The notes below the pieces were generated by a model. That model searched no databases. It saw nothing but the letters and a program-made list of their open reading frames with translations, and had not been told where the DNA came from. From positions 2,730,776 to 2,794,775 of the forward strand of contig NC_057756.1 in the NCBI RefSeq assembly GCF_004010195.1: 64,000 nucleotides of DNA, given 5' to 3'. This document shows, piece by piece, positions 2,258 to 63,557 of this stretch; within the stretch, counting starts at the first letter, position 1; the number at the start of each line of letters is the position of its first letter. The position numbers and the translations under genes are program-made. Source of the stretch: Chiloscyllium plagiosum. Lineage: Eukaryota.

Positions 2258-2287
2258 ATCTTACGATGAGGAAAGAAGGTGAAGCAA
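2258..2287 (+). CDS. Candidate symmetric phase-1 microexon (30 nt; xDLTMRKEGEA) of a heptad-microexon gene
   Basis: ttttccattcaatgccgactacag|ATCTTACG...GAAGCAA|gtgagt. A weaker donor (gtgaag) after 2278 would give a 21-nt version. Open in phase 1. Confidence 0.5.
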
Positions 2288-2717
2288 GTGAGTGAGAATA
2301 CATAGGTCTCTGGAAACCCACCAGTATAATTAAATGTAACTATTGTCGCTTTGCATTTGTTGCAACATATCAACTTATATCATTGGTCAAATAGTTTGCA
2401 CTGTTCCTAATGCCAGAAATGGTTTGAAAAATATACTGAAAGGTCTACTGAAAGTTAATTCACCAGCTCATAGAGAGTGACACAAAACCATAAAGATGCT
2501 GATCAGGAAACACAAATTGACGATCTCATTTCGAGAAAAAAAATTGTTGCAATGCTATTACTTCAGAATGTAAAAAAAAATATAATTCACAACATGTTTA
2601 TTCACATGAACATTTATGGATTTTTGTTTTCGTATCCAAGATTGCAGTTGTACATTATTTTGTCGTATTTCAGAAATGCGAAACTGTTATTTAAATTATT
2701 GACTCTTCTCACTTCAG

Positions 2718-2738
2718 AGTTTGAAAATAAAGAAGCAG
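2718..2738 (+). CDS. Candidate 21-nt phase-1 microexon (xFENKEA)
   Basis: ttgactcttctcacttcag|AGTTTGAAAATAAAGAAGCAG|gtaaga. Strong acceptor and donor; stop in phase 2, open in phase 1. Confidence 0.65.
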
Positions 2739-2964
2739 GTAAGAACAGAGGGTATTTTTGTTTCGGAAATAATACAAATAAGAACGTTTTGAGTCATATA
2801 CGTGAGTTCACATTTCATATGACGGTAGTTTAATGTTATTACATCATTTTAATGCACCTTGCTTACGTATAATGAGCAAAAAATACTTTTGTTATTTACC
2901 AGTAGAAGAATAGTCGGTCATTCTGTTTAAAGTTTCGATATTGAAGTTCACTTATTGACAGCAG

Positions 2965-2985
2965 ATTTGAAGAGCGAGATGTGTC
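2965..2985 (+). CDS. Candidate 21-nt phase-1 microexon (DLKSEMC)
   Basis: cttattgacagcag|ATTTGAAGAGCGAGATGTGTC|gtaggt. The peptide resembles the 30203 exon (DLGKEKC). Confidence 0.55.
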
Positions 2986-4289
2986 GTAGGTTTTGTATGA
3001 CAGAGAGCAAATTGGACAGAGAGAAGATAGCCAACTCTCACTTGAGCAGAGAACAAACCCCTTCTCTGAGAAGGAAGTACCTGGCTCTAACAAGAAATCT
3101 CATCATTCTCTGAAAAAGCAGCATCCATCCACGTGGTACACCGCACGTTGTGTGAATATCGTTCAAGATAGACAGTCGACGGAGAAAGGCATTAAGAACA
3201 GGTGAATAAAAATAAAATATCGTTGAGAACAGAATGAGCAGGATGACATGGAGCATTCCTGAGGATCCATTCTTTGTGAACGTTGAGCAACTAAGTTTTA
3301 ATTTATTATTTTCTTTTTACTTGTATGGATCAGTGGGACCTACATTATTGAATCAGCATACCGAAAGAATCTTGTTTTATTCAGGCAACGTGAGAGTGAA
3401 ATTTCAGTTTGCTTGGAATTCTGGTGGCTTGTTTTCTATAAGCATTAATAAAATAAATTGTTACTTGTTATTTGTAGAGCTAACGAAAGGATGTCATTTC
3501 ATTTAACCACCCCTTTCCAGCAGATTGTAGAGCTGAAAGGTTGGCTCTAACACTTGTCTGTGCATCAGATTATGAGGCGAGGGGCTCCCCTCTAGTTGTT
3601 TTGGATTGAATATTCATACGTTTCATGACCTCCCTAATTTAACAGTGGTACTCAACTGATTTTTTGCTTATGATCTGTCAACAAATACGTCACTTGGACT
3701 TCCGTCATCTGTGCTGTCTTTCATTTAAAGGACACAGATGCATTAAAAGATTTCCCTTAATGAGGATGTAATAATGCAAATAATTTCCAGCAGCTCCTCA
3801 CATAAAACATATAAATCTCTCTCCACTAGCATGCTCATACCGCAGAACCAATCGGCCAGTGATTGAGGATCACGACATCGTGCTAATGCAACATTAATCG
3901 TGTGGAAATCGAATGGAACAATTACTTGTAGAGTATAATTTTTTGCTGTACATTTGCCAACTCATCCTTCTGGTTTTCAAAATAATAGAACTATAAAAAT
4001 GATTCCACAATGTTATTTAGGAAATAAAATCTATTATCCCTCTCTGATTTGGCCATCTTTTGCATCGAGATGACCACCTTGTGACTGCCGAGAAGTGACG
4101 CCTGAAGGTTCAATGTATTCTGGCTTTGCCAGTCATGCAAGTTTAGCATTAATTTGCAGAGACAACCTAGTCTTCTTAATACCAAGTAGCTTGCACTGTG
4201 AAATTGAGGCTGGAAAATACTTGCGGGCATCCTACACTAAGTGCAGCTTAACCTACATACTCTTCATTTTATTATATTTCACGTGCCTA

Positions 4290-5650: not shown

Positions 5651-5701
5651 CATTTCAGTATGAGCTTGACAACGGAGGATCCTGAATGTTCTTATTTGTA
5701 G

Positions 5702-5719: not shown

Positions 5720-7129
5720 GTAAGAAACGTTACTTTTAAGGACACAAAGATTCAGTCGTGTAAACGTCTGTCAGTTAAGTTCAGAATATGCATGAAAGAA
5801 GAGCGCCAGAGAGGGAGAACACAATCTGAAATTCAAATGTAGTACATGGTAGATGAAGGTGGGAGGGCATGCATGTCTTTATCAGAGAAAGCATGCCAGA
5901 TGTACATGCTTTAGAAAAACATTATTTTCAATAATTACATTGTGATCAACCAATAAAATTCAAAAGAAACAATTTCAAGAGAAAGTGAACGCAAATAATT
6001 AGACAATTGGTTGGTGGTATATGGAAAAAATCGCATTCATAATTAGTAGTATGTCTTGATTTGTTAAAGAATCAAGTTGGGAAGACGTGATTGCACATTG
6101 AACAATTCAGACAGACAACAGCTGCGCATGGAAGTGGGAAATTCCAACTGTCCATAAATGATTGATGATTATCATCTAATCTGGATGAGAGTGAGTGTAG
6201 AGAATACGATTGAAATGGTCGTTACGTTGAAACATTGAAACCCAAGAAACACGAGGCGATAAGGAGAATCGTGTTAGCTCCTATATGACGACAGGAATTT
6301 GAACTTGTTCAGTGCACCAATGGTTTGAAATTCAGACGGCTTTGATAACGCCTCGTGCCAATAAAATGGATATCTACACTGTGCAGCACAAGAATTACAG
6401 TGGGAATAGAATTACTGATTGATGTCAGATAACTCAGAACCAACAAAATAGAAAGAAAGAGACAAGACAACCTTCGTATGCAGTCTAGAAAGTTGCATGT
6501 TAAGAAAATATAATGACCAGCTATCACTTATATCCAATAAAATCTGCAGTTTCACAGAGCAAAGAGCTAATTGACATAAAATAGATAAGATTAGAAATGA
6601 AAGTGATTGATTCAAATAATTGGGGGGAGTGTGGGTGGAAGTGTTGTAAAGGGTTATTGTTTGGGGAGCACAGGCAGCAACACTGGGGAAAGTTAGTTTT
6701 TCACTATTAGTGCCGTGATGCCTGAACTATTCTTCAAATCGTGTTCTTGCAGATAGAGGATCTCAGAGAGCAGAAAAATGTTCAATTTAATCAAACTTCA
6801 TTCATGCAGACGTAGAACATCTTTCAGTCAAATGAACGATTCGAAGTAGAGGAACAAAATGCAACGATGAAAGGTGAAGGTCCGCCTCTAATGCACAGGG
6901 AAAGGTAAAACTAGTTGTATCTGTAAGAGTCATTTCCAGCAGAAATTATTGGGTTTTACAACTAAAAACAAAGTAAAATATTACTGTTTCAATATCTGAA
7001 GGGCACTTTGCATTCGAACAATGAAAGAAAGGGAACCTCATGCATGTACCATCGTGAATATATACTATAATACATCCCTGTCTAGACACTTACCCCAGGT
7101 TGTCAAGGGCTGTTTGAGGAATAGGAGGA

Positions 7130-14879: not shown

Positions 14880-16290
14880 ATAGACACATAGAGATGAGCA
14901 ACAAGGAAACAAACCTTTCAGTTCAACTCATCACTGCCGACCAAATATCCGAACTTAATTTAAGCCCAATCGGCAGCTTATCAATCTAAGCTCTTCCTAT
15001 TTATGTACCAACCCAGACACCTTTTAAATCTTGTGATCATACCAGCCTCCACTACTTTCGATGGCAGCTCATTCCATACACTCACTACACATTGGTATGA
15101 AAATGTTTATTCTTACCTCCCTTTTAAATCTTCTCTTTCTCAGCCTAGACCAATGCCATCTAGTTCTGGACTCCCAAAATCAGGGAAGAGATTAAGTCTA
15201 TTTATCCTATTCCTGCCCTTCATATTTTGTAAACTTCAAAATAGTCACCTCTCAGCCGCCGAAATTTCAAGGAAAATAGCCCAAGCCTATTTAAGTTCGC
15301 TCTACTGTTGAAACAGTATAACCATGACAAAGCCCTTGTTAATCTTTTCGGATGTTCAAGCTTCACAATATCCTTCCTATGGATAGAGAAAGAAATTTCA
15401 TCCAATGTTTCAAAAGTGGCCGACCAATGCGCTGTTCATCCGTATTATAACCTCCCGACTCCTGTCTAATGAAGGGAAGCATTAGCAACCCTTCTTCACT
15501 CTCTGATCTACACGAGACTCCACGTCTAAAAATATATGAACCTGCAATCCAATGTCTCTTTGCTCAGCAACGCTCCCCAAGACCTTTGCATTCAGTTTAT
15601 ATGTTCTACCGTGATTTATTTTTCCAAAATGCAGCGCCTCACATTTATCTAAATCATACACCATCTGACATTGGCGTATTGTATCAAGCTACTGTTTTTT
15701 TTTTGCCTGAGGTAATCTTATCCCCTTTCTGCTGCACCTGCATCTGCAAACGTCCTAATTATACTTATATGTTCACATCCAAACCGTTTATGCAACGAAA
15801 GAAAACGTTGGGTCCAGCCCCAATCCTTTGGCCACGCCACTTTTTACAAGTCTCCAGTCTGAAAAGCAACACGATCACAACCGTCTGCCTTCTGTCTTCG
15901 AGTCAGTTGTCCGTCCAAATAGATACTTCTCCCTGTATTCAGTGTGAACTATCCTTGCTAACCTGACTACCATAAGGAAATTTGTCAAACCACTTCCTGA
16001 AGTCCATATAGATCATGTCCACTGCTCTGTCCTCAACAATCCTATTCGCTACTTATTCAAAAACCTCAACCACGTTAGTGAGACACGATGTTTCAAAGCA
16101 CAAAGTCATGTTGATTATTCCTAATCAGTATTTTCCCTGTCCCTTAGCATTCCTTCCTCCAGCTTGCGCACCACGGATGCCAGTTTCACAGGTCAACAGT
16201 TACCTGTTTTTTCCTTGTCATCATTCTTAATTAGAGGCACCGCATTCACCAAACTTGAATCATCTGGCACCTCACCTTTGACTATCTGAA
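14880..16290 (-). mobile_element. CR1 LINE 3' fragment
   Basis: DKCEALHFGK...AEQRDIG and LNRLGLFSL..RRLRGD in minus-strand ORFs; 3' tail near 14880. Confidence 0.9.
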
Positions 16291-23109: not shown

Positions 23110-26100
23110 TTGGATGAATTCCCAGCGATAAGCCACGAGGTACAGGTCTCTGACACAGAGTCTGTCCCTTTTGCTAAGAATGTGAGGGGCATGAAGACGA
23201 ACAGAGCGTTATTTATTGGGGCCACTAGAGGTTTGGGGATAGATTGGAGGAAATGTGGGAACGAGACAGACTCACGATTGGTGCGCTGCCTCCCTGGTGC
23301 CATGGTTCATTATGTCTCGGCTTGTGTATTTGGGATCCTTAAGAGGGAGGAGGAACAGCTACAAATCGTGTTGCACATAAGTATTAGAGACTTAGATAGG
23401 AAAACGGATGGAGTTTTATGGCAGAAATTCAGAGAACTACTGTGAAAGCTTAATGCTAGAAAAAGACAGACTTGTTATCTTTGGTTTGCTGGCCGTGTCA
23501 CGTGCAAGCGAGACGAGAAATAGGAAGAAAGCGGAGTTGAACATGTATCTGCAGGGATGGTGAAGGAGGGGGGTTTCCGACACATGAATAATTGTGTCTT
23601 ACTCTGCGTTGGTGGGACTCTAAAAACAAGATGGTCTTCACCTGAACCAGAAGCCTACTAATATTCCTGGGGGAGGAGGCGGGGTCGGATTTTCTCACGC
23701 AATTTTGAGGGTTTAAATAATTTAGAAGGCGGATGGGAACCTAAATCGTAGGTCCAATGACAATGAAGTTAAGAGTGGTGAGAACAGAAATAAGGTTTCA
23801 AGGTAACAAGTGTTCACCGGTAAGCGTGAAGGTTATTTAAATTATGTCTACTTCAATGCCAGGAGCATTGAGATGGGTGAACTTGCAGAGTAGGTTTGTA
23901 TTTGGGACTTCGATGTTGTGACAATTTCGAAGACATGTATAGGGCAGGGACAGGAATGGTGGTTTGTTCGTTCCAAGTTCCAGGAATTAGATGTTTCATT
24001 AAGGACAGAAATGATGGCTAAAGTAGGGGAGAAATGGCATTGTTAATCAAGGGCAGTATTATGGGACTCATTGACTGAACTAGTTCTTTTGAGGTTAAAA
24101 AAAAGAATGGAGAGGCTTATTCAAAGGAAACTCTTATTCAAAGGCCTGTTGAAAACTCCTATTGGGAATTTTCAATAGGCCTCTGAATAGTCCCAATGAT
24201 GTAGAGGAATGGATAGCAAAAACAATTCTGAACAACAGTGGGAGTCACAGGCTAGTTATTATGGAAACTTTAACTTCCCAAATATTGGCCGGAAATACGA
24301 TAGTTCGAGTACTTTAGATTGGTCAGTCTTAGTCCAAAGTGTGCAGGCTGATTTCCTGACACAGTATGTTGACAAGTCAAGAAGGGGCTAGGCCACAATT
24401 GATTTGGTACTGGGTAATGAACCTGGCCAGGTCTTAGATTTGCAGACTGGTGAGCACTTTCGTGATACTGACTACGATTCTGTTATACTTACTTTACCGA
24501 GAGAAAGGACTACGTTTATAATGCAGAGCAAGATATTAAGCTGGGGAGAAGGGATTAAAATGCAATAAGGCAGGATTTAGGATGTATATCATGGGGGAGG
24601 AAACCACAGGTGATGAGCACAATTGAAATATGAAGCTTATTCAAGGAACAGCAACTGCGTGTCCTTAATAGTTATGTACCTGTCCGACAGGAAGGAAGTG
24701 ATCGAGCGAGGTTTACTCATGACTTTGAATCTCTTGTCAAGATGAGTAAGAAGTTGCATGTTAGGCTGAGGCGCGGAGCTCCGTTTGGTATTTGAAAGTT
24801 ACGAGTTAGCCAGGAAAGACCTACACGAGTGGTATGAAGAGCCATGAGGGGACGTAAGAAATCGTTTGCAGATAGGATCAAGGAAAAAACTAAGCAATGT
24901 ACAGGTACATCAAGAATAAAAGAGTGAATAATGAAATAATAAGACAACTCAAGGATAATGGTGGGAAATTGCACATGAAATAAAAGGACATGGGGAAGTG
25001 CTAAATGAACATGTTGCATCAGTATTCACACTAGAAGAGGACAATGCTGTGGAGGATAATATGGAATCACACTCTACTAGACTTGACCGGACTGACGTAC
25101 ACAAGGAGGGGATGTTGGCAGTTCTGGAAAGAGTGAAAATGGATAGGACCCCGGGACGGAGAGGATTTATCCTGGTATTATCTGGGAAGTCCGGGATGAG
25201 GTTGTGGAACACTTGGTTTTGGTCTTTATGCCTTCAGTGCATACATGAATAGTGACAGAAGACTGGATCATAAGAAGGTGAGGAGAGACAACTCTGGTAT
25301 TTATTGACCAGTGAGCCTTACTTCGACTGGTGGTAAAGTTTTGAAAAAAAGTTATAAGATATAGGATTTATAATCATCTGAGAAGGAATTACTAGTTTAG
25401 GGATGGCCAAAACGGTTTTGTCAATGGTAGATCCAGCCTCACAAACCTTAGTGTGCGCATTGAGATGGAAACTGAACATATTGATTAGGGTAAAGTGGCT
25501 GATGTGGTCTATTTGGGTTACAGTAAGGCGTTTGATTCGGTTCCTCAAAGTAGGCGATTGAACAAAATGCCAAGGCATTTGATTAAGGGTGATTTAGCGG
25601 TTTGAATCAGAAATGAACTAGCTGAAAGAAGACAGAGGTTGGTGAATGATGGGAAATATTCATCATGGAGTTTAGGTAATAAGGGCATACCTCAAGAATC
25701 TGTGTTGGGGCCACTGCTCTTTGGCATTTTCATAAATGACTCAGAATGGGGTGTATAAATGATTGATTAGTAAATTTGCAAGTTACACTAAGGCCCGTGC
25801 AGTTATGGACAGTTCTGCAGTATGTCGCAAATTACAGAAGCACATAGATAACTGCAGAGCTTGGCTGAGAGTTGATAATGTCGAAATGTGTGAGGTGATT
25901 CACTTTGAAAAAGAGCAACAGGAAGAAGAAGTATTGGCTATTGCTATAGTTTCTTGGAAGTGTACATAAGCTGAGAAATCTCGGTGTCCTTGTACATATA
26001 TCCCTCAACGTTACTAGTTTGATCGGGTTCTTGCGAATGCATACGGTGTGTAGGCTTTTATTTGTAGTAGGACCGAGTTTCAGTGCCACGAGGTCATGCA

Positions 26101-26650
26101 TCAGCTGTACACTTTTGGTTGAATTGCATATTGTTCTGATCACCGCATTATAAGAAGGATGGGGAAGTTTTGGATACAGTTCAGAGGAGATTTATTAGGA
26201 TTTTGTCTAATATGGAGGGAAGGTTTTGTGAGAAAAGGCTTAAGGGCTTGAGGCCTTTTTCATTCGAGACAAGATGGTTCAGTGATGACTTATTTGATAT
26301 ATCTAAGGTAATCAGAGGGATTGTATAAGGGGGACAGTGAGAGCCTTTTCTCCACGAATGGTGATTGTTCGCATGAGGGTCATTGCTTCACATTGCCGGC
26401 TGATGGACAGAGGACAGAAGTCAGAGTTAGTTTCTTTGCTCAGAGAGTGGGGTGGGGATGTGGAAAGCATTACCTGGAATAATCATTGACTCGGCAACTT
26501 TGATGGCATATAAATCATCGTTGGATGAACATATGAGTGAAAATGGAAAAGTGTAGGTTAGATGGGGCTCAGATTATTTCCATAGGTAGGCGCAAAATCG
26601 AGTAGTGAAGGACCTTTACTGCTCTGTAATGCTTTATGTTCTATGTTCTA
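23110..26650 (+). mobile_element. Near full-length decayed CR1 LINE (ORF1 esterase, APE, RT, ctatgtt tail) inserted in the Gypsy RT
   Basis: RLVRCLPGA (ORF1), YFNARSI (APE), GNFNFPNI, ISKFA (RT); 3' tail atgttctatgttcta at about 26636-26650. Confidence 0.9.
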
Positions 26651-27170
26651 AAACACATTCCTGGACCACGTCATCGGACTCGGACCGATGGCGCCACAGA
26701 ATGTGAATACAAATACTGATCAGGAGTTTCCAATTGTATGTGCAAACTTATTCAGACTATGATTCTTCAGTTGGTCGGTTTTTATCGAATGCTCGTTCCA
26801 GTTTTCAGAAAAGTGGCTGCTCCACTCACTAAATTAACGAAGAAATGCAGGAACTTCAAGTGGACTACAGACTGTCTGAAAACATTTGCCTGTCTCAAAG
26901 TTGTATTATCTACTGCCTGTGTCAGCCATATAGCACTAGCAAACGCCATTCACATTGGCTAAAGATGCAAGTGATATTGATGTTCGTGCTGTACTCTTAC
27001 AAGACGAAGGCGTGAAGAGGGAAAGACCAGTCGAATCTTTCTCCAGGAAATTGAACATTCCGCTGTAAGATTCGACAAATGAAAAGAACACCTTCTGCAT
27101 GGTATTGATAGAACATCAATTCAAAGTTTCTGTTTGTGATAATGTGCCTGAGACAAATATCTTAGTGATA
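26651..27170 (+). mobile_element. Gypsy RT C-terminus/RNase H relic, continuation of 22300-23105
   Basis: TFLDHVIG; LVGFYRMLVPVFRKVAAPLTKL.KK...FKWT.DC; DASDI.V.AVLLQ; FSRKLN. Confidence 0.85.
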
Positions 27171-30202: not shown

Positions 30203-30223
30203 ATTTAGGGAAGGAAAAATGTG
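30203..30223 (+). CDS. Candidate 21-nt microexon (phase 1 xLGKEKC; phase 2 FREGKM)
   Basis: ttccttgccttttgcag|ATTTAGGGAAGGAAAAATGTG|gtaagt. Near-consensus splice sites. Confidence 0.7.
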
Positions 30224-33962: not shown

Positions 33963-33995
33963 AAAATTGTCTCAGTAGGTTATTTCAGGAACATA
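33963..33995 (+). CDS. Candidate 33-nt phase-1 microexon (ENCLSRLFQEH)
   Basis: atatttgttatttag|AAAATTGT...GAACATA|gtatgt. Open in phase 1. Confidence 0.35.
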
Positions 33996-37400: not shown

Positions 37401-37890
37401 GTGACAATAAGATGCTGGGGATATAAAAATCTGGGCATTTTAAAAATTCAAGAGAGAGCAACTGCCATCTAAACATTTCCAGAAATTAGGAAACATGTTC
37501 TGTTAAAGGTCCTTCTTTTTCGCTATGAAACATACTCTCACTAAAAAGAAAAAAAAGATGACAAGCTAATTCAGTGCCCGTAACAGAGAATTCACAGAAG
37601 ACGACAGCGGCTCTGTGATGTTGAAATTAATTTGATATAACTTTTGTATGTGTTTATTAGAACAATATAATTTTAGATTTTTGGAGGCAGATGATAAGCG
37701 GTTAAGGGAAAGAATGGCTTAGAGTTGTTAATAGTTGCTTAAATCTGACAATTAGGTTTAGAAAAACGATGTTATTTTCTTGAAATAGTGGAAGTGGTGA
37801 TATGCTGCCACTCATACTTTAACAGAATACGTAGCAAGTGTGCTTTTCCGGGTATTTGTTTTATTTAACAGAACAGTTAAGGTCCGAGTT
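34450..37890 (+). mobile_element. Internally deleted Gmr1-like LTR element: LTR, tRNA-Pro PBS, SCAN-type gag, LTR
   Basis: Diverged direct repeats (about 34850-35440 vs 37310-37890). PBS TTGGGGTTCGTCCAGGAT. Gag from ATG 35633 with KLVGRAGEV...LVPEAYRQ*FR. No pol seen. Confidence 0.75.
35451..35468 (+). promoter_or_regulatory. Primer-binding site, tRNA-Pro type
   Basis: 15/18 match to TGGGGGCTCGTCCGGGAT, immediately 3' of the LTR and 5' of gag. Confidence 0.7.
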
Positions 37891-39081
37891 GTAACAGCGG
37901 ACAAAATTGGCTTCCCGGTTTGTGCAATTTTCCAAAAGCTTTGGTGAATGGCTAAACCAAAAAAAGTTTCAATTTGTTGCTGTGTGGATTGGTCAGTTTG
38001 TTGTGTGGGGAATGTTAGAAAAGGATGTGCTTGTATCCTGTGGAGGGTTGAATCCCGAAGAAGCAATTTTTAAAAATGTTTTGTAGGATTCTTTTCTGGC
38101 TTGAGTCTGTCCACGTTAATTTTAGCTGAATCCAGAAACACACCACCAATATTATAGTAAATGCGAGTAATATAGTTACTTTACATTGAGGGGCAGGTTG
38201 GTTAAAAGACTGAAGCTATCATTTCTCAAAGTACGTATTGCCTCTGAAATCGGCAGAGTATCACACGTGAAACACAATTGTAACACATTACGGAAGATAA
38301 CGAAGCAACTCGATTTGAATCGGTTCCCACTGTATGTTAGCAGTCTGCCTGAGGTCTTTATAAACTTATGGATTGAAAACCAGAACCAAAGTCGTATAGA
38401 TGGAGATCCAAGCGATTCCACCAAAAGGCAGGTTCTGCAATGATTCTGAAGAGTAGTTTTACGGACAATGCTGTTGCAAAAGAAAATTCGAACATAATTT
38501 CAAATGATTGATAAACTCTATGCTTGAATGAGATAAGTGCAGTAGACTGATAGCAAAGGAGATTAATGTTTTGATGGTCATAAGAAGTTGAATGCGTGTT
38601 CTGCACCTTTAAGAGAGAGTGAATGTTGTTCTGAATGTTGTTACAAGCACCTCTGTACATGAGTAGACAGCAGTCCGGAATCTACTGGAAACTTGAAAAT
38701 ATGTATCATTTGGCCCTGAAGTAGATACCTGAGTTCTTTGCTGTTTTTGAACAATTCGAGTTTAAACAATCAGTTTAAATTATGAACAAAGATTCTAAAA
38801 TCTCATTCGAGTTTGAACTTTATTGTTTTGCCAACAATGAACCAACGAGACGATTCTGTGTTATTTGTCTTTAAATGTGGACATTTTTAAATATGTAAGC
38901 ATCGACTGCCATCAACACGGATCGAATAAAATAGTAAACACTCTCTGACAACGCTAGCTTTTCATATGATACTTATGAACATAGTAAAAAGGAAGAAGAG
39001 ACTCCAGTGAGATGTTCATCTTGAAGAATACAGACGTCGAAGGCAACTGCCACTGTGTTGTTTTTCTATTATTTTGATGTA

Positions 39082-39711
39082 ATTGCTGTGGTTCTGTTCG
39101 ACGAGCTGGAAGTTTTTGTTGCAAACGTTTCGTCCCCTGTCTAGGTGACATCCTCAGTGCTTGGGAGCCTCCTGTGAAGCGCTTCTGTGGTGTTTCCTCC
39201 GGCATTTATAGTGGCCTGTCCCTGCCGCTTCTGGTTGTCAGTTTCAGCTGTCTGCTGTAGTGGCCGGTATATTGGGTCCAGGTCGATGTGTTTGTTGATG
39301 GAGTTTGTGGATGAGTGCCATACTTCTAGGAATTCCATGGCTGTTCTTTGTTTGGCTTGCCCTATAATGGTAGTGTTGTCCCAGTCAAATTCATGTTGCT
39401 TGTCGTCTACGTGTGTGGCTACTAGGGATAGCTGGTCGTGTCGTTTCGTGGCTAGTTGATGTTCGTGGATACGGATCGTTAGCTGTCTTCCTGTTTGTCC
39501 TATGTAGTGTTTTGTACACTACATTAGTTTTGCTCATGCTGGGTATCGCGTCTTTCGTTCTGGTGAGTTGTTGTCTGAGTGTGGCTGTTGGTTTGTGTGC
39601 TGTTATAAGTCCTAGTGGTCGCAGTAGTCTGGCTGTCATTTCAGAGATGTTCTTGATGTATAGTAGTGTGGCTAGTCCTTTGGGTTGCGGCATGTCCTCG
39701 TTCCGTTGTCC
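39082..39711 (-). mobile_element. Young 5'-truncated Penelope-like element with 11-bp TSD
   Basis: YIKNISEMTARLLRPLG..AHKPT.TLRQQL..TKD..NVVYK (GIY-YIG region). TSD attttgatgta at 39071-39081 and 39712-39722. Confidence 0.92.
39121..39160 (-). ncRNA. Minimal type-I hammerhead ribozyme motif in the Penelope pLTR
   Basis: gca-CTGAGGA-t-GTCACCT-agac-AGGGGAC-GAAAC-GTT-tgc: CUGANGA and GAAA cores, stem II with one mismatch, short stem I. Confidence 0.7.
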
Positions 39712-39964
39712 ATTTTGATGTAGTTTTTGTATGTGTCTTAACAGAAAAGTATACTGTTATAGAATTGGAGCCACATAGTCAGCAATTAAGAGTAAAGGGT
39801 GCTTAGAATTGTGAGTTTATTTTTAAGATCCACTGTTCGAGTTAAAAATTTAATTTATCTTACCTTAATTAAATAATGGAATTTGTGGGTATGTGTCACA
39901 CTCGTTTTAAAAGATTACGGGACAACGTGAGCTTTTCAGGGTGTTTGGGTTAACAACAGAGAAG

Positions 39965-40940
39965 TTCACTGCTTTGTCGTAAAAGTATATGTGGATGTTC
40001 GGGTTGGGAGGGGGAAATGTCAGCAAGTTTGCAGAGTCAAAAAAAAAACTAGTTTGGTGATTAGCAATGAAGATGTTGCTTTTATCTTACAAGAAGCTAT
40101 ACTTGTGTGGATCAAATTGGCTGAGCTGTGGCAGGTAGTATTTAACTTTGATAAGTATGACTTGAAATACTTTGAAAGAGGAAACAAAATATGGGAGTCT
40201 TCAATAAATGGCACGGCACAGTGTATCACAGAAAAAGCGGATGGATCTTGGCTTAATTATTCACAGATCGCTGAATCTGGCATAAAACGTAACTAAGCTT
40301 GTTAAGAAGACATGTACAAATCTTGTTTTCATCAATCGTGCAACAGAGTGTTAAGTAGAAACGTTTGCAATAGCAGAATTCTATAGAGCATTCGGTAGGG
40401 ACCAGCTGGAGTATTGCGTTCACTTCTGGTCACATCACGACAGGAAAGAAGTTATATCATGAGACAGGATACAGAGGAAGTTCACTGGCATGTTACCTAA
40501 AATAGAGCAATTGAGCGAGAAGTGCAGGATAGATTAACTTGAATTGTTTTCTTTCGAGCAGAGAAGACTGGAGGCGGGAGTACATGATTGAGTTGGTTGT
40601 AATTACGAAGGGGAAGGATAGGCTGATTAGGACGCAGCTTTTCTCCTGATTTGCCAGGTCATTGACAAGGGGGACTACATCACAATAACGGGCAGGAGAC
40701 ACAGAAGTAATTTGTCAAAAATAAAATTCACTGAGAGTGTGATTGGTGTCCGAATTGCATTGCCTGAGTAGTTAATGTCCGGAAACATGACAACTTTTTG
40801 AAGAAAATGGATTTGCACTTGAAATGTCATAACTTTAAATGATATCGGCCACGTGCAGGAAACTGAGACTGGAGGACATTTATTGGTGAATACTCGATTG
40901 TGCAAAGTACCTTTTGAGGGATTATGGTAATAAATGCATG
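39965..40940 (+). mobile_element. Decayed CR1 RT 3' fragment
   Basis: VSKFA; AELWQVVFNFDKY; DQLEYCVHFWS. Confidence 0.8.
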
Positions 40941-45900: not shown

Positions 45901-48499
45901 ATGTTTAGAAATATCATGGCTGATCTAAATTGACCTCAATACAATACTTCTGCACAACTCTGTTAAATGTTATTCTTTTAAATCAAATTTCTATCGCATT
46001 CCACCTTTACAAAGATCGAAGAAAACATATATTTCATGTGTCTGTATCAAGTGCCATGTCAGAGACGTAACCCGAATGACTCAGACACATCTGAGAGATT
46101 TTAAGTTTTAAACATTTAAAGTTTCATAAATGTTTTGGATACAGCAACCGACGGCATGAGTGTAAGTTTGATAATGACCAGAATGGCTTGAATGTCTCTT
46201 CATTATGTTGAAGTTCTGATCGGTATTTTTGGATTCTGTAACAAGGCAGATCATTTACCACCACCGCCTCCACCCCCAATTCCACACAATCCTTTGCACT
46301 CTGTGTTTCATAAGTCCTGTATGTTACCTCTAATAATCCTATCCTACAAAGGGTACACATTTAGCTTCTCCAGCTTTCTACATGAGGCGATGTTTTTTTA
46401 ACAATTACCAATGCATGAGACTTTTTTCACGAAAGGTACACTTCTGTTAATATTCTTCAGAAATGAGAGAGTGTAGTGCATACATTCGCGATCAAATATG
46501 GCCAGTTTAACACCCGAATTCTACCTACTTTAGTAATCAGTCGTGCTCAGAAAACCATGACTGTCTATTAGCTTCTGTCTGATTGCATGGCTAGCTAATC
46601 TATGCTAACCATAGACAAGAGCATTCAGTTCTCTCAGCTTCTTGGAAATCTACAACTTTTCAACGCTTTATATTTTTATTTAAGTATATCCTTCTGCTGA
46701 AATCTACTGGTTTCCATGTTTCCGATCTGCCTCAGTTCTTTATCAAATTTACACTCATGCCCTCGGCTGCTATATCCAAAACTGTTACGAATATTTAAAT
46801 GTTTGAGGTTCCACAACCACATCCACTGGCACAACATTCTTTGTACAGTTGCGGGCACAGGGAAAAAAATTGCAGTCCTCTGAGTCTTGTAAGATAGGAA
46901 ACTTTTCTGAATGATAAATGTCATCACAACAAATACACATTTATTTTCTGAAATTATTTTTCATAAGGTACCTTATGAAGTGCCCCTGGAAATTTGCATA
47001 CAATAAATGTACTGATTACCCTTTAAACACAGCGCAACGTAATTGCTTTCACAAAAAAAATAAAGTGAATATAATTTCACTTTCATAAAATCACATGGAT
47101 TTTTCCTATATATTGGATTGTAATTTTTTTTTATTAAAAAGCGTATAATAATGTCCAAATGCCGTATGGTTGGCTAACTGGACCAGGAATTACCACTTTA
47201 GGTCTTCTCTTTTTCAAATCATTGTTATATTGGTTAATTTCCCAGTATGCAGGAGCAATTCCAGATTAAAGCAATAATTGAACTTAAAAGAAAAGAACAA
47301 GTCAACAATTCTCACACTAGGTATTGGTTTTAAGATCATAGGATGCAAAACAGTAGAAGCGTGGCACTTGCAAAGATGTTGTTGGTACTACTTACTCAGT
47401 ACTCAAGGATGTACAGACTTGGCATGGAATATAGAATATATATGACGTTTAGAAGAGACATTGAATCAGTGAATTACATTGGAATTTATTTCAATCATTC
47501 TGTAAATATTTAACGAATCTTTTTAAAAAAATATTTATATTCAAACGAAAATTCCATTGCACTTTAGTGCTATTTTCCCTTTTAAAGTTGCGTTCCGCCG
47601 CCTTGACCCACCCCCACCCTCCACCCCCACTCCCACTCTCGCGAAAACTCCATTCGTGCAATATGCTGGCAGGTAAACTAAGTTTGAAGAATGATATTTA
47701 TTTCCCTTGAGTTTAACATTTAATATACTTACCAGTGAACGAATCGCCTACGTTTGGAATATTTTTTTTTGCTGCAAAGTATTGTACCTTCAAACGTTAG
47801 ACTTTTCCCCTTAATGGTGACGATTCCATATCTTTTGACCTAACCAACTTGTGACAGTATATTTGACCTTGTTTTACATTCAAAATTGCAGTCTTAATTC
47901 CACTGTTCTCACCTTTGAATTTTAAGTTAAATTCTGTGGTATTATGGAAGCCCAGCGGTGAATTCACTATCAGTTCAATATTTCGTCCTTTGCAGTCGCT
48001 CGAAACCAGCGACTAATATAGCCTGTTATCCGTTTCTCGTACAAGAACACACTTAACTAAATAAAGTCTAGTAAGTAATTTAATTAATTCCTTTCAAGAT
48101 TATTTCTATTACTACGACCTATTTTCTTGTTGACCTGAATTTGCAAATGCTCAAGTTAATCACTGTACCCTTTCGACAAGCATCAATTATGTCTTTCTTG
48201 ATATGCCATCCGACTATTTGTTCAATGCTGCGGTCATGTACAATATTCTCACAACTGATCTCTTGCCTTCATCATTTCGTGACGTCATCCAGACTGCTTC
48301 TATATTCTGATTTTCTGAATGGCATCAACCCTCTCGTTTTGGGCTATCTCATTTATTTGACTGTTTTCTGGTCATTGTTCTGAAATAAATCAATGAACTT
48401 CCTGCAGTCAGCTGATTGATTTCAGTTCAAGTTTTTCTTCCAATGAAGAACCTACAACTTGATTTAAATGGCAAGGCAAATGACAGCGGATTCCTTTCT

Positions 48500-51384: not shown

Positions 51385-52825
51385 AATAGCACTGGTGGAT
51401 TGCAAATGTCGTGCTCTTGTTCAAGAAAGGCAGTGGACATGACCCATGTAATTATAAACCAGTGAGCCTTATTTCTGTTGTAGGAAAGGTTTGTGGAAAG
51501 GATTATAAGGGATAAGATTTATAATCGTCTATTAAGCAATAATTTGATTTCAGATAGTCAACATGGTTTCGTCAAGGGCAGGTCGTGTTTCACATATCAC
51601 ATTGAGTTTTTTGAGAAGTTAGCCAAGCATGTAGATGAGGGTAGGGCAGTTGACGTTGTATACATGGACTTCAGTAAAGCCTTTGATAAGGCTCCACATC
51701 GTAGGCTTTTGGAAAAAATGCAGAGGAATGGAATTGAGGGCGACTTAGCAGTTTGGATTAGGAACTGCTTTCTGACAGAAGGCAGCGACTGGTGGTTGAT
51801 GGAAAATATTCAACCTGGAGTCCGGTTCCGAGTGGTGTGCCACAATGATCTGTTTTGGGACGACTGCTGTTTGTCATTTTTATAAATGATTTATGTGCAG
51901 ACATAGGTAGATGGATTCATAAATTTGCAGATGACACTAAAGTCGGTGGAGTAGTGGACAGTTTGGAAAAATGTTACAGGTTGCAGGGGGACTTGGATAA
52001 ACTGTAGAATTGGGCTGAGAGGTGGCAAATGGAGTTCAATACAGCTAAATGTGAGATGATGCACTTTGGGAAGAATAACTGGAAGGCAGAGTACTTGGTC
52101 AAAGGAAAGATTCTTGCTCGTGTGGATGTGCAGAGGGATCTTGGAGACAATGTACATGGATCCCTGAAAGTTGTCACCCAGGTGGATAGTGCTGTTAAGA
52201 AGATATACGATGTGTTCGGTTTGATTCGTCGAGGGATTGAGTTCCGGAGCTGCAATATCATGCTGCAACTACACAAAACGCTGGTGCGCCACTCTTGGAA
52301 TATTCTGTCGAGTTCTTGTCCCGATATTTCGGGAAGAATGTGGAAGCATTGGAAAAGATGCAGAGGAGTTTTACCAGTATGTTGCCTCGTCTGTAGGGAA
52401 GATCTTATGAGTTAAGACTGAGTGACTTGGGTCCGTTCTCATTGGAAAAAAGACGTCTACAGGGGATTTAATGGAGACATATAAGGTGATCAAAGGATTA
52501 AATAGGGTAGGCATTGAAAGTCTTTTTCCTAGTATGATGACATCAGCTTGTACGAAGGGGCATAACTACAAATTGAGTGGTGATAGACTCAAGACAGATG
52601 TCAGAGGCACGTTCTTTACACAGAGAGTGGTAAGGGCGTGGAATGCCCTATCAGTTAATGTAGTCAAACTCAGCCACATTACGGAGATTTAAGCAATCCT
52701 TAGATAACCACATGGATGATTATTTGACAGTGCAGGTGGACGAGCTGAGAATATTTCACAGATCGGCGCAACATCGAGGGCTGAAGCGTCTGTTCTGTGC
52801 TGTATTGTTCTATGTTCTATTTTCT
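51385..52825 (+). mobile_element. Relatively young 5'-truncated CR1/HER1 LINE
   Basis: SQHGFVKGRSC...VDVVYMDFSKAFDK, KFADDTK, FFTQRVVRAWNAL; tail tattgttctatgttctat. Confidence 0.95.
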
Positions 52826-54311
52826 AAAAGGTGGTACAGGAGTCTAGAAATAAATTAATATGTAGACATCAAATATCCTAGCATTAAGTCAAATGAGTCG
52901 ATGGCTTCAGTTGTACAATAACATTTTGCACTTTTTAATCCATGATTTCTAGAAATTCAATTCTGGCAGAAGGCAGTTCAAGATTTAGGTGAGTTAAAAT
53001 TTGAAATGCTTGGCAAGCATATCATTCCTTTAACTAGCTGATCCCGAGATGGTAATGATGAGCTAATTTCTGTAAACACTACATCTGTTATGCTGTTCGT
53101 GCACCCACAACTTCACGAGGTCGGGAGTAATAGGATTTTAATTGAATTTGTGTTTTAAGTTCATATGCCCATCATGATGTTTTGAAACAAAAATACATCT
53201 TTGGTAATAGTCATCCTAATTTCAGTGCCTTCAAAAACATCAAGTTACTCCTTTCCCAATATTCATAATATTGTGAAAAATTGATAGGAATAATATGATA
53301 ATTTTCAGAATTGACCAATTGAAAGAATTTCTCTGCCATGTTAATGTACCATTCCTCTTTAATTTTGTTAATTTCATTACGTCTTCACTCTTATTTTCAT
53401 TTGAACATTTTGTTTTGCAAAGAACACACATCTTGAATAGCTGTTGAAATGTAGTATCTAATATTTGGACTCTTCAACATAAAAAATGTGATTACACATT
53501 CATTTGACCACCTGTCACTGGCTACAATTTTGAGCACAAGGTTAATGATAATGGAATGGAAACTAAGATTTTCGATCATCAATGTAACCGTGAAGGTTTC
53601 GAATGTGGTTGACTGCCATTAAGTTGGCATCCTCAGATTGATTACAATTTCTGTATGAGTCAAACAATTCACCAAAGTGCCATGAATGACATGGAAGTCA
53701 GGTCATTTAATTTCAATACAAAGGTGTCAGATGTTTTGATGTGTCTACGAAAGCAATACCAACTCGGAATCCAAAAAGAAAAAGAAGAATCTGCTTAAAA
53801 GGCTCCGTGGATGTGGGAAAATTGTTGGTGAAAAATCAGACTTTATGTTTCAAGTTAAGTGACGCTTCCGAAGAACATTTCTCAAGAAGGGTCACTTGCC
53901 CGGAAATGTTAACTCTGATTTCTTTATAATATCTACAGCTGTTTTGGTTTTCGTATACTCGGACTAATATGCATTGGCAGACGACATGGATTAGATGTCA
54001 AGATATATAGGAGCAGACACAATGGCAGTAGATTCCTGTCAGGAAAGACGCAGTGTAATCTTTCAATCTCTCCATAGAAGTGTCAATTGTGAACTTTCAC
54101 AAAACTTCATACCTTATGTGTTCAATATCGATTTGATAAATCGTGCATGCTATTAATGTTAACATGTATGCCGACTGGTTGTTTCATGTGGTCGTCTTAT
54201 TTGCCATTTTTCCACACATGCTGCATTCAGAATGTATTTCACCCTCAACGAATTTGAAAGAAACCTCTGTTCTAAAGAAGAGCAATATTTTACAAACTTA
54301 CTGTGAGTATG

Positions 54312-56637: not shown

Positions 56638-56664
56638 AAAACAAATTGCGAGAGACAATAATCG
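56638..56664 (+). CDS. Candidate 27-nt phase-1 microexon (xNKLRETII)
   Basis: gttctttccttttcag|AAAACAAATTGCGAGAGACAATAATCG|gtaatg. Confidence 0.6.
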
Positions 56665-59628: not shown

Positions 59629-59664
59629 AGTTGAAAGATTGCAAACTGAAAAAGGAAGACCCAG
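59629..59664 (+). CDS. Candidate 36-nt phase-1 exon (ELKDCKLKKEDP)
   Basis: tgtttgcctgaacctag|AGTTGAAAG...GACCCAG|gtaaga. The peptide parallels the 63522 exon. Confidence 0.55.
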
Positions 59665-60760
59665 GTAAGAAGATTATTGCAGTTACACTTGACTTTTTTG
59701 GCGGAATTCAGCCTGTATAAATTCAAACAACGTATCTATGCAGTAAGTGTTGCAAAAGACAGCTCAGCATCGATATTTTAAAGCAGTTCAATAGACCAAA
59801 CACAGCTAAATATTCTGAATGAAAATGCCTTCCACATTGGATTTCAGTTGATAAGAGTGAACATATGTCCACCCATAGACAGGGCAAAAAAGTCTTTAAT
59901 AACGATTAATTGGGGAAGTATATTTCTGATTCGGTTTGTTCCATAATTAAAATAATTATGAAGTGTCCCGCATGTACAATTTTCCAGTGCTATAAAGACA
60001 TAACCAAAAATTAAGGATGGAAAGATCTTTTCCATAAAATCTAGAGACACAAATGTTTGGTCATAAAGTTGTTGTGTCTATATGCCAGCATTGTGAAGCT
60101 TGATAATTTACAGCGAGCATCTTTCAAAGTAGATAGAATAAACAAGATTAAAAATGAACAATTAAACCTTTGTGTAATTTGAAAAGTCCATTCACCCCTC
60201 CTCAGAGTTGGCATGTTAAAATTGTAATGCTTACTTCTTGTGGGCTGGAAAACAAATCGGTGAATCACACGAATATTGCATGTGTTGTTCAATCCAAGAG
60301 TTCAGTTTCAGCAACAGTATGTTCACGAGTTAATCCAATGATCTTGTTACCGTTTTGTCCAAACTCAGTGACATTTTTGGAACTAATAAATGTAAAAGGT
60401 GAGAATAACGCTTTTCGTTATTGTTTAACATCTTTGTATCATAGTTTAACTTAAGACATGATGACATTTTCTATCGCTCTTTAAGCATTAGGCTGTGCAA
60501 CAGATTGTTAAGACTTCCTCTATTGTTACACTATCAATGAATTTTGACAGCGTATGAGTTGAGAGTCTAGATGGCATTTTAAAAAAATAATTCTATTATG
60601 AACAAAAAACGCGGTTTGTTAGCTCGAAAATATAAATGATGTTCAAAGTCAAATTCCGTCCAAAGTTACTTCAACAGTAAAAACAATCTATCAATTTGAA
60701 GAATTTAGAAGACATTGTATATTTTTATATTTTATTTTGCATGATACGGTCTTCATACAG

Positions 60761-60766
60761 AGGATG
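60761..60766 (+). CDS. Candidate 6-nt microexon AGGATG
   Basis: tttattttgc...gtcttcatacag|AGGATG|gtatgt. Confidence 0.3.
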
Positions 60767-61559
60767 GTATGTAAAAAGTAACTCTTTATTGTCTTCAACC
60801 TCGAACCAAAAAAAAAAATCAAGCGACCATGATCCAATGCAGGGTCCTTGCAAAGGGAAAAAAAAACAATTAAATAATGATTCCACCATGAAAGAAACAC
60901 CCTTAACAAAGAAATTGGGTATACCAACATTCTCAGGTCTATGCAATTTTTTTGATTGTGTCATATCACCACTTAAACGTTTGTGTCCGCCACTGGCAGG
61001 AAGTTTAGTTTAAGGTTAACTATAAAGCTGTCCTCACAAATCGCACTCTTTGCCAATTCATGATTTCCCTGAAAAATGTTACTGTATGCTCATTACTCGA
61101 ACTGCTGCATTGCTTTTAATAGATTGACACTACTCTTGTAAGGATATAATTCCAAGACGCTTTAGCAAACATTGCTGGGTAGCATGTCTCCATTTCTTTT
61201 GGGGGAGGGCGTGTCAGCTTAATTATTTCATTTACAAAACAATAGGACTTCATATATTGCAGACACAGTTACAGCCAATGCTACTTGATTAAGGCTGAGA
61301 GATACTTCGCAGCACATAGCAGTGAAACGATTAAAAATCAAGCCTACATGCGTATAAAATCACAAAATAAAAATAAATAAGAGTAAAAGACTGCAGATTA
61401 GCAGTCGATTTGTACTTAAATCAGAATTCATTTTTTTAAAAGTGCTCAAAATGTTTAAACGTTTTGCTGAACAAAGCAATTATGAGCGTGTGTGGAAAGT
61501 CAAAACATGTCAAATATACAAGTTTGCACTTCAATTCACGACGAATTTGAAATAAGTTC

Positions 61560-63360
61560 AGTGTAGTCGTGATGCAAATCGAGGTAATTAAATTTGTTCT
61601 CATAGCCATTATGGAAGCATCCCCATATGTAGATGAAATCTAATAGAGAACATTCTTTCAGAGAGACAAGGGGATGAAAAAGGTGTTGGAAAAGAGCTCT
61701 GATCGAGGAATTAGACCAGAACAGTTCCGAGAGTTAATATAGACTTCGAAGATGTACAGTCCCTTGCAGAAGTCATAAAAGAAGAAGCAAAGGAAATAAG
61801 ACGGCGAGTGGACTTGTGTACACAGACCCAAGCGCAAACCACTCAGTGGGAACAGCTGTAAGTCATCAAATTATAGGTGCGTGTAAAAATACAATAGGTA
61901 CATCAATATGGGTGACGTTAGACTTCGTAATGATAGGGTTGACCAAACTGGACAGTTTTGCTGTTGCGAAAAATTCTTAGAATGTATTAAATGTAGCTTC
62001 CATGAAACAGGACATCTTGAAACTACTAAATGGTACTGATGCAGAATTAATCATTGACTTATTCGTAGAATATCCCAATGAATTAGTGATCATGGGGTGA
62101 CATTAGTTATAATCATTTTGTTGATCAAATGACTGGTTCGGAACAACTGTATTTAATTTAAGATCACGGAATCAGAATGAAATTTGTGATCATCCATGAA
62201 CTGGACGAAGACATTATCTGGAATGACAGTCAAACATTGTCAAACGCTTAACGAGATAATACTTGGCTCTCAGAAAAATTATATTCGATTAAGGAGGAAT
62301 AATTTCAGACAAAACTACAGTTAACCAAAGAAGATAATGTAAAAGATCTGTGAAAGCTGCAGAGTCTATGAAAAGGGGGACAAAAAAGTTCAGAAATCAA
62401 GTATGAGGACAGGGCTAGCGAGTAGTACAGTACAGATTAAAGTAAATCTTCTTTAAAAAAACAATATATATATATATATGTGAGAATTCAGAGTGAGCAT
62501 TGTCGTCTCGAAGATGAATGTGAGGAGAAGGTGAGGAGTGGCAATGAAACAATATAACAAGTAAATAGACATGTTTCATGGTGGAAGATACTTCAGATAT
62601 TCTTATAATATGGAAGGCACACTAACGAGGAATTCAGTACCATCACCAGTCCTAACTAAGTAACATTCACTAAAGCAACGGCCGTATAGTTAGATAAGCC
62701 TGGTGAATCCCATGGCTTTGTACCGAAGATCCTAAAAGATACAGCTAACACTAAAGTCAAAAAAGTGAAGCAATGTCATGTCATTTTGAGTCTGTCCAGG
62801 ATATTGGTTTGGCACTTGTAGAATACTGCATTCCATTCTGTCCTCTCTTCTTACAAAAAGACGCTGTGAAGCTTAGAAGTCTTCAGAAAATATTGGCAGT
62901 TTTGTTGCAACAGTTGGATTGTGTGATCTACAGAACGAGAACGAATAGTCTGGGACTATTTTCTGTGGACCGTCAGAGACTGAATTATGAAATTATACAA
63001 GTTTGAAGAATCATGAACTATTTGGATAGAATGAATAGATAATATCTTTCTTTTTGCTCGCGTAGGAGAGTCCAAAAATACATAACAAAGTTTTAAATTG
63101 AGAGGAGAAAAAATTATAAGTAACCTTAGGGGATTTTTTTCATGGTGAGTGCATGGGAAAAAAAAAAGCTGCGAGAGGGCGTGGTGGGAGTTGTTAAAAT
63201 AACAACATTTAAAACGTGTCTAGATGGTTACACGAATAGGGTGACTTCGGAGGATTTGGTCCAAATGCTGGATAATAAAACTGGCTTGATTTATCTATTC
63301 AACATGAATGGGTTTCACGGAAGGGTCTGTGTTTGTGCTTAGTCGTCAATCAATCTATAA
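61560..63360 (+). mobile_element. Highly decayed CR1 (APE to RT 3' end, with deletions)
   Basis: LALVEYCIPFC; SLGLFSVDRQRL; FKTCLDGY. Confidence 0.75.
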
Positions 63361-63521
63361 CCATTTCAAATGCAGTTGATGAGTAATGCAGACAAAACAC
63401 ACAATGCGAGAATAAAGACTTAAGATTGCTGAATTTTAAAGATATCAAAAGGATTCAACTTTTCTAATTGAAAAGTGGTGTTCTATAATGTTTTCCAATT
63501 CCAATTAATCTTTCAATACAG

Positions 63522-63557
63522 AACTTGATGCTTGTCAGAAAAAGCTCAGAGAAATTG
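63522..63557 (+). CDS. Candidate 36-nt phase-1 exon (ELDACQKKLREI)
   Basis: ttaatctttcaatacag|AACTTGATG...GAAATTG|gtaaga. Stop in phase 2; coiled-coil-like in phase 1. Confidence 0.7.

Follow-up and report, generated by a model that had tools for sequence, protein, structure and literature searches.

Candidate micro-exons within the window

The window, the 64,000-nucleotide stretch of the forward strand of contig C47 of Chiloscyllium plagiosum analysed here, contains a series of very short candidate exons, all on the plus strand. The preliminary description had listed eight such blocks, and all eight do begin with A, are preceded by AG and followed by GT(A/G), have lengths divisible by three and are open in phase 1. 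Scored with models for which 105 exons from beyond the window served as the training set, and against a null taken from the minus strand over 857 kb, the blocks are unequal. Four are strong, two plausible, one doubtful (33963) and one weak (2965); four (2258 as 21 nt, 2718, 56638 and 63522) have a trained score above all 23,996 minus-strand candidates.

The first is a 21-nt phase-1 exon at 2258..2278 with a trained score of 13.9, higher than every minus-strand block. Its 30-nt form, using an alternative donor and extending to 2287, scores 10.7 (0.07 null blocks per 64 kb), below the 21-nt form. The block is also a match of the genome pattern search. This exon continues a 21-nt zone that extends upstream of the window for about 430 kb, from position 2,298,844 of the contig. 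A second exon of 21 nt, also in phase 1, follows at 2718..2738 and has the E-F-x-x-K-E-A pattern (score 20.0). The weak 21-nt candidate at 2965..2985 scores –2.2, which is indistinguishable from chance (36 null blocks per 64 kb); it is favoured only by its L/C pattern and by its position 247 nt after 2718, a spot occupied by an exon in the upstream units, and it could be an exon that is weak or in decay. The last called member of the upstream 21-nt zone is the phase-1 exon at 30203..30223 (21 nt, score 7.9), which has strong splice sites by generic scores and a trained null rate of 0.67 blocks per 64 kb. The doubtful candidate at 33963..33995 has a length, 33 nt, that is not enriched, and 1.8 null blocks per 64 kb.

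The 36/27-nt zone opens at 56638..56664 with its first called exon, a 27-nt phase-1 exon with leucine at codon 4 (score 14.4). The 36-nt phase-1 exon at 59629..59664 has a strong donor, a weak acceptor and an E-L-x-x-C motif (score 6.9; 1.05 null blocks per 64 kb). Its score, like that of 30203, is middling, yet both bear the D/E-L-x-x motif of the family. A 30-nt candidate at 60369..60398, absent from the preliminary description, scores 9.2 (0.37 null blocks per 64 kb). The final exon of the window, at 63522..63557, is of 36 nt and phase 1, scores 18.0 and has hydrophobic codons 2, 5, 9 and 12; the best match of its peptide in the C. milii protein discussed below is at residue 560. Two more candidates were rejected, 52953 for its weak trained score and 24872 for lying inside a repeat. 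The triplicated 800-nt unit at 34.6–40 kb was likewise rejected as an exon unit, being a dispersed repeat present on both strands.

About 50 kb of the window is poor in exons, and no intron homology was found between the window exons and the upstream units. Taken alone, the window has no strand excess by generic splice scores (43 blocks on the plus strand versus 40 on the minus strand), its phase-1-open blocks number nine versus eight, and the minus-strand block 47933 has a trained score of 11.8. The statistical case for the array comes from the flanks and not from the window itself. The excess over the opposite strand expected in the preliminary description is present in the flanks, but not within the window by these scores. 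Similarly, the initial A is a property of the eight blocks that does not extend uniformly to the wider array, where it is found in only 38 of 54 21-nt blocks. The window is the switch point from the 21-nt zone to the 36/27-nt zone, and the exons in it, probably six to eight in number, would lie in the middle of a giant gene of cartilaginous fishes.

A one-strand array of probable heptad exons

Over 857 kb the lengths of plus-strand blocks peak at 21, 27 and 36 nt, with 54, 20 and 15 blocks respectively, compared with 6, 8 and 7 on the minus strand, as counted with generic splice scores and no frame filter. Phase 1 is open in 80 of these 89 blocks, and the other two phases in 49 and 53. At a trained score of at least 11 there are 93 blocks on the plus strand and 7 on the minus strand, the training seeds having come from the plus strand. 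Every called exon is symmetric and on the same strand. Hydrophobic residues occupy regular positions: in the 21-nt blocks (n = 52) codon 2 is hydrophobic in 88%, codon 5 in 42%, and codons 4 and 7 in 6% each, while in the 36-nt blocks (n = 11) codons 2, 5 and 9 are hydrophobic in 82, 73 and 82%. The motif D/E-L-x-x-C opens 17 of the 109 called exons. The length peaks, the phase bias and the heptad-positioned hydrophobic residues all support the earlier proposal of a hidden plus-strand gene with symmetric phase-1 micro-exons, and the array of more than 100 segments of 21, 27 and 36 nt on one strand is likely to represent the exons of such a shark gene.

The array had been taken for the tail of a gene. 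In fact the window lies in the middle of a megabase array, the scale of which was underestimated. Samples trace it from 430 kb upstream of the window to a B30.2 exon 1.78 Mb downstream, and the 36/27-nt zone runs for at least 390 kb past the window end. An exon pattern with three mismatches allowed has 26 matches on C47, all on the plus strand, spanning 2.30 to 3.80 Mb; the same pattern has 34 scattered matches elsewhere in the genome, and a reversed control has 26. In ten samples placed between 3.24 and 4.58 Mb, the plus strand yielded 18 candidates and the minus strand 2, four of the samples being empty, three picked from pattern matches, and about 1.25 Mb of the interval 3.195–4.566 Mb lying outside them. 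Continuity across 3.2–4.57 Mb rests on these samples in place of a full strand map. The order of zones along the contig is 21, 36/27, 21, 36/27.

The assembly contains N gaps, two of which (3–4 kb) are near the apparent start of the array. Hydrophobic stretches are numerous in this region, with no convincing transmembrane exon, and leader-exon candidates (15 on the plus strand, 7 on the minus) are not clearly above background. One putative leader, near 2,286.7 kb, has a phase-0 donor and could not be aligned with the skate protein; further upstream, at 2,255,981, there is a 27-nt candidate.

Duplicated copies upstream provide a measure of selection. Splice sites are retained in 30 of 44 copies, compared with 15.3 expected by simulation. 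These 30 contain no stops where 6.9 would be expected (P = 0.0002), and their sole indel is a removal of 3 nt; the 14 broken copies, each lacking a splice site, have two stops and three frameshifts. Differences at codon positions 1 to 3 of the intact copies are 0.105, 0.153 and 0.177, a modest contrast. There is selection against stops in the intact copies, and dead copies adjoin them.

A B30.2 exon downstream and its relatives

Profile and homology searches lead us to infer a terminal B30.2 exon, open and in phase 1, at C47:4,577,499–4,578,019 on the plus strand. The preliminary description had placed a B30.2 exon beyond the window, and this one is 1.78 Mb past its end, on the same strand and in the expected phase. 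We infer that the window exons are joined to it. In the comparison with DNA run X1, this exon has at least two differences, and the two listed are one silent change and one Met-to-Ile. Two queries return the same five family B30.2 exons, with none between 1.30 and 4.577 Mb of C47; others on this contig are at 0.995 and 1.297 Mb. The two genome-wide searches, in which the best 150 of 259–270 candidates were scored in a gapped assembly, gave no additional family B30.2 exon on C47 or the unplaced contigs. The family B30.2 falls short of the Pfam PRY cut-off; the PRY profile has no match on C47 among the best 150 of 292, and the SPRY profile has one. A large PRY/SPRY cluster is found on contig C37, not C47.

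RNA was sampled over at most 20 kb at the 3′ end, with 2% of run X5 read, nothing from run X6 placed and tissues unspecified. Within that compass runs X5, X6 and X7 gave no read or contig over the B30.2 exon or the final 36-nt exon, and the reads placed were repeat-derived only.

Protein database searches found no close orthologue of this B30.2 domain, the best match having 48% identity. It has a set of relatives with B30.2 domains of the same group, at 34–48% identity: XP_042192744.1 of C. milii (1697 aa, named ‘nuclear-pore anchor-like’), XP_055510696.1 of Leucoraja, XP_038668997.1 and XP_038672308.1 of Scyliorhinus, XP_069775385.1 of Narcine and XP_078422387.1 of Cetorhinus. All are predicted models, in which the N-terminus may be in error. 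In a quick tree with a midpoint root, 14 family rows separate from 13 Ig-motif rows and 12 other rows (BTN, TRIM) with an SH-aLRT of 100. Judged by sequence, the domain groups with unstudied coiled-coil plus B30.2 proteins of cartilaginous fishes, apart from butyrophilins and TRIM proteins, and a cartilaginous-fish setting is upheld. In most of them a coiled coil precedes the B30.2 domain, as predicted for the array gene. Five relatives were scanned and have no Ig or RING domain; XP_042192744.1 has SPRY. The models are between 175 and 1697 aa long and have been given TRIM or TPR-like names, whereas the array protein would be longer and would include the 21-nt zones.

The D/E-L-x-x-C motif is common to the array exons and the C. 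milii protein, where the density of D/E-hydrophobic-x-x-C is the highest among 163 proteins. The 109 exon peptides fit its coiled coil with a score of 2296, compared with 2052 ± 28 for TRIM/BTN stalks and 2083 ± 49 for shuffles. A protein database search found no shorter homologue of the C. milii rod, and atlas matches were all under 0.9. No paper on this family was found in a literature search with subscription journals mostly outside its coverage.

Comparison with BG genes, butyrophilins and other systems

According to published accounts, the heptads of the chicken BG tail are encoded by 21-nt exons whose first codon is split, with hydrophobic residues at codons 4 and 7 (PMC5938342). BG genes have IgV and transmembrane exons and 13–37 tail exons, the number varying by expansion and contraction, and their tail is contrasted with the BTN tail ending in B30.2 (PMC4046983, PMC5938342). 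The array shares with BG the symmetric phase-1 21-nt heptad exons and split first codon. It differs in having more than 100 exons of 21, 27 and 36 nt, hydrophobic codons 2 and 5, no Ig exon found, and a B30.2 exon downstream. For butyrophilins, PMC4046983 gives Ig domains numbering one, two or four, with only a few heptads, and PMC12841164 places ordinary butyrophilins in cartilaginous fishes, on the MHC chromosome in three species. In BTN3A1 and BTN2A1 heptads are followed by B30.2, like the proposed gene, and BTN3A1 is the nearest solved B30.2 structure (E = 1e-32).

Ig exons had been anticipated upstream. None was found in 83 plus-strand open frames from the window and 90 kb around the array’s apparent start, in a scan that detected five of five butyrophilins; the gene’s 5′ end was not located and there are gaps in this region. 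Nor was there an Ig match by tblastn of 163 proteins, including butyrophilins, against about 1.0 Mb, and TRIM proteins gave no RING/B-box match over the same extent. Membership of the BTN/BG family, as originally proposed, is therefore not sustained: with no Ig exon found, the B30.2 domain grouping apart from butyrophilins and TRIM proteins, and a different hydrophobic register, the design is BG-like but the gene is very probably not a BG/BTN member.

Other systems share individual features. The guinea-pig enterophilins are cytosolic mammalian proteins with about 45 heptads, a C-terminal B30.2 domain and no Ig domain; they resemble the proposed array gene in this architecture. TSBP1/C6orf10, triadin and tetherin/PLVAP are membrane proteins with small exons or coiled coils, and none is known to end in B30.2; TSBP1 is a neighbour of BTNL2 in the MHC. 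PV-1 matches are found on the unplaced contig C90965 and weakly on C11 with none on C47, which speaks against a tetherin/PLVAP locus beside the array, though not decisively.

The proposed gene and protein

On balance we slightly favour a giant gene in which the window exons are mid-gene, and whose predicted product is a long coiled-coil rod that would carry at its end the B30.2 domain of the exon 1.78 Mb downstream. The odds that this is a single 2.3-Mb gene are about even. Each exon would contribute 7, 9 or 12 residues, 12 plus 9 making three heptads, so that duplication, skipping or loss of an exon would keep the frame and change the rod length stepwise. The rod may oligomerise in parallel, with Leu, Met or Phe at position a and Cys, Tyr or Leu at d. 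N-terminal tethering is proposed because two relatives, and only two, start with a short hydrophobic segment; rod and B30.2 head would then most likely face the cytosol, an arrangement like that of a butyrophilin lacking its Ig domains. Almost equally probable is a rod that is secreted and disulphide-linked. The rod could act as a spacer, setting a B30.2 head, putatively ligand-binding, at a distance of hundreds of nanometres from the anchor. The fullest version is more tentative, a possibility that we put somewhat short of even: one 2.3-Mb unit of 200–300 micro-exons, founding an unnamed third B30.2 class in cartilaginous fishes, and encoding a rod, membrane-tethered or secreted and several hundred nanometres long, the length of which evolves, and is maybe spliced, heptad by heptad as exons are born and die. 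A length of 2.3 Mb is comparable to the longest human genes, and the exon count would be near the highest, as in dystrophin and titin.

How well do other explanations account for the array? Two or more tandem genes of the family, with that of the window ending between 3.19 and 3.33 Mb, would explain why the zone order 21, 36/27 occurs twice, and other family B30.2 exons do exist on the contig. The interval 3.195–3.335 Mb is sampled by a single empty 8-kb piece and N gaps exist, so the B30.2 exon of an upstream gene might have fallen in one of these, been lost, or given way to a different last exon. Yet the searches gave no extra family B30.2 exon among the candidates scored, leader candidates do not stand out, and the called exons are uniformly symmetric and on one strand; we regard tandem genes as less likely than a single gene. 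A true BG/butyrophilin gene, with Ig and transmembrane exons further upstream and the array as its expanded cytoplasmic tail, draws on the matching exon design, the BTN3A1 structural match and the unlocated, gapped 5′ end. We consider it very improbable given the absence of Ig matches near the array and in the five relatives, the separation of the B30.2 domains in the tree, the hydrophobic register, and the ordinary butyrophilins that these fishes already possess.

A once-functional gene, or part of one, that is now decaying with its exons no longer spliced is also improbable. The loss of splice sites in 14 of 44 copies, the lack of RNA on the 3′ exons in the sampled runs, the exon-poor 50 kb and the modest codon-position contrast would all fit; against this, stops and frameshifts are confined to copies without splice sites, the lone indel of the intact copies preserves the frame, and the B30.2 exon is open, with the X1 differences listed above. 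Finally, chance AG...GT blocks in repeat-rich intergenic DNA would account for the even strand counts within the window and for 2965 and 33963, which fall individually within the null. They scarcely explain the length peaks, the strand bias by trained score, the pattern matches, the phase bias, the selection on copies, or the four window blocks that exceed the entire minus-strand set. Chance is refuted for the array, and remains for single weak blocks only.

The preferred reading, of exons within a giant gene, points to a B30.2 family of sharks, rays and chimaeras that is large and conserved but unstudied, which databases name TRIM or TPR-like and the bulk of which gene finders overlook. Should the array be a single gene, it would rank with the largest known. 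It bears on whether a module of heptad exons and B30.2 predates butyrophilins, apart from an Ig ectodomain. It also makes the old question of BG tail length testable in a far larger system. Indeed one four-exon unit, with live and dead copies side by side, shows a coiled coil gaining and losing heptads.

Probable micro-exons in the window and its flanks

The preliminary description proposed a hidden plus-strand gene built from at least eight short blocks (window positions 2258, 2718, 2965, 30203, 33963, 56638, 59629 and 63522), and all eight are present, with AG and GT(A/G) ends, lengths that are multiples of three and open phase-1 frames. The only Pfam match in the plus-strand open frames of the window is a reverse transcriptase fragment. 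By generic splice scores the plus strand has 43 blocks and the minus 40, so that the window taken by itself (C47:2,730,776-2,794,775 of genome G000) is not convincing; since it is set in a genome of 3.56 Gb, the flanks were examined. The plus-strand excess of AG...GT blocks, absent inside the window, appears there at 21, 27 and 36 nt.

In 857 kb of called bases around the window (C47 2.291-3.195 Mb, minus a 40-kb stretch and gaps), with generic splice scores and neither frame nor length filter, the counts of 21-, 27- and 36-nt blocks are 54, 20 and 15 on the plus strand, where other lengths stand at about 5, and 6, 8 and 7 on the minus. Phase 1 is open in 80 of the 89 plus-strand blocks, phase 0 in 49 and phase 2 in 53. 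A model trained on these blocks as seeds, a partly circular procedure, called 109 exons of the three lengths on the plus strand and 3 on the minus. We regard the array as very probably real.

A long run of 21-nt exons starts at C47:2,298,844 and is followed by a 36/27-nt run reaching at least 3,188,373, the switch falling inside the window between 30203 and 56638. Codon 2 is hydrophobic in 88% of 21-nt blocks and codon 5 in 42%. In the 36-nt blocks the hydrophobic positions are codons 2, 5 and 9, and in the 27-nt blocks mostly codon 4, so that a single heptad register is held through a 12+9 pair.

The eight blocks were scored by models trained only outside the window, against 23,996 minus-strand candidates. 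Blocks 2718, 63522, 56638 and 2258 (as 21 nt) score above every candidate; for 30203 and 59629 the null yields roughly one block per 64 kb at their scores, for 33963 1.8 and for 2965 36. Six of the eight are probably exons and the other two are candidates. The best minus-strand block, of 21 nt at window positions 47913-47933 with good splice sites (score 11.8), may be an exon copy in inverted orientation or may have arisen by chance.

Selection and exon death

Over the 143 kb upstream of the window a four-exon unit is repeated in tandem, and the introns of its copies still align at 60-65%. Intron homology recovered 44 exon copies, intact or broken, after removal of 19 of 63 matches that lacked exon coverage; intact copies had served as seeds for the profiles. 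Both AG and GT are kept in 30, where flank divergence, which misalignment may inflate, predicts 15.3 (0 of 5000 simulations). These 30 contain no stops (6.9 expected, P 0.0002) and a single indel, a 3-nt deletion; in the 14 broken copies there are 2 stops, where 3.2 are expected, and 3 frameshifts. Of all the evidence, these counts argue most strongly that the exons are, or until recently were, translated; they also show single exons dying one after another.

RNA reads over the last 10 kb, at the 3′ end, were repeat-derived only in runs X5 (2% read) and X7, and X6 gave none; this weighs little because the tissue of the runs is unstated. The DNA run X1 covered the same 10 kb.

Extent of the array and its proposed B30.2 exon

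A 21-nt-type pattern with 3 mismatches allowed has 60 genome matches, whereas a reversed control has 26. Of the 60, 26 fall on C47, without exception on the plus strand and from 2.30 to 3.80 Mb. Ten samples between 3.24 and 4.58 Mb, of which four were empty and three selected from pattern matches, gave 18 plus-strand rows (15 distinct places) against 2 on the minus. Along C47 the zones run 21, 36/27, 21, 36/27. By extrapolation the whole array would hold roughly 200-300 exons. An identical 21-nt-type block on two other contigs (G000:C40851:631 and C100091:32569) may be allelic, or a fragment missing from the array.

The preliminary description expected a B30.2 exon downstream of the window, and the SPRY search located one, its only C47 match: a plus-strand, phase-1 terminal exon with a stop (4,577,499-4,578,019), with AATAAA some 860 nt beyond. 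The domain (2010-2516 of stretch L090) has no PRY match, no cysteine and no C-V-L-G stretch, the last being usual in TRIM/BTN domains. The same five close exons came up whether this exon or a paralogue was the query (150 of 259 and 150 of 270 candidates scored): on C47 at 994,530 (plus), 1,296,638 (minus; with the former in stretches L091-L093) and 4.577 Mb (plus), and at C37:22,229,878 and C37:20,720,070 (L094, L095). From these placements, the one known B30.2 exon at which the plus-strand array starting at 2.30 Mb could end lies 2.28 Mb away. One gene may well run through to 4.578 Mb.

The exons at 994,530 and 1,296,638 point towards each other, and a minus-strand array of 36/27-nt exons precedes the latter. 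C37 also bears a large PRY/SPRY cluster. The 5′ end of the array was not found in our searches; near its apparent start, a brief hydrophobic open frame that runs up to a donor site (L084:5910-5990), followed by a 12-nt block flanked by good splice signals (6311-6322), may represent first exons.

Relation to BG and butyrophilins

The array shares the design of BG tails, in which 13-36 exons, each of 21 or 24 nt (PMC4046983), carry a hydrophobic residue at the fourth and the last codon (PMC5938342). In butyrophilins a few heptads and a B30.2 domain accompany the Ig domains (PMC4046983), and ordinary butyrophilins are present in cartilaginous fishes (PMC12841164). Despite its design the array does not fit BTN/BG in Ig content, register or type of B30.2. 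About 1.0 Mb searched contains no Ig or RING match, the hydrophobic codons are 2 and 5, and in a quick tree 14 family rows fall on one side of a branch (SH-aLRT 100), apart from 25 rows of BTN and TRIM-like proteins selected among the 150 hits. The BTN/BG membership first proposed is thus not supported, and a true BG/BTN gene is very unlikely.

The array instead likely belongs to a cartilaginous-fish group of coiled-coil and B30.2 proteins, of which we found no description in the literature. Among 1.84 billion representatives searched, the nearest single-domain relatives have 34-48% identity, those with a name coming from cartilaginous fishes. SPRY was found in all five relatives scanned, and Ig, RING or B-box in none of the five. 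The C. milii model (XP_042192744.1, 1697 aa) has an N-terminal hydrophobic segment, next to it basic residues, then a coiled coil and a terminal SPRY, and its rod fits the exon peptides better than TRIM/BTN stalks or shuffles do. A 295-aa skate model starts with a signal-like segment; the remaining relatives have no hydrophobic start. Topology and ligand of the predicted protein are what we infer. A tetherin-like protein, the reading favoured at first, was given up for the B30.2 reading.

Repeats in the window

An 800-nt element occurs three times at 34640-40000 (65-70% alike), with more copies on both strands across 860 kb, and is therefore a dispersed repeat. The exon-poor middle of the window holds retroelement fragments, presumably CR1-like, at 14979-16104, 25297-26653, 32146-33305 and 51448-52829, the last with a reverse transcriptase match at 51484.
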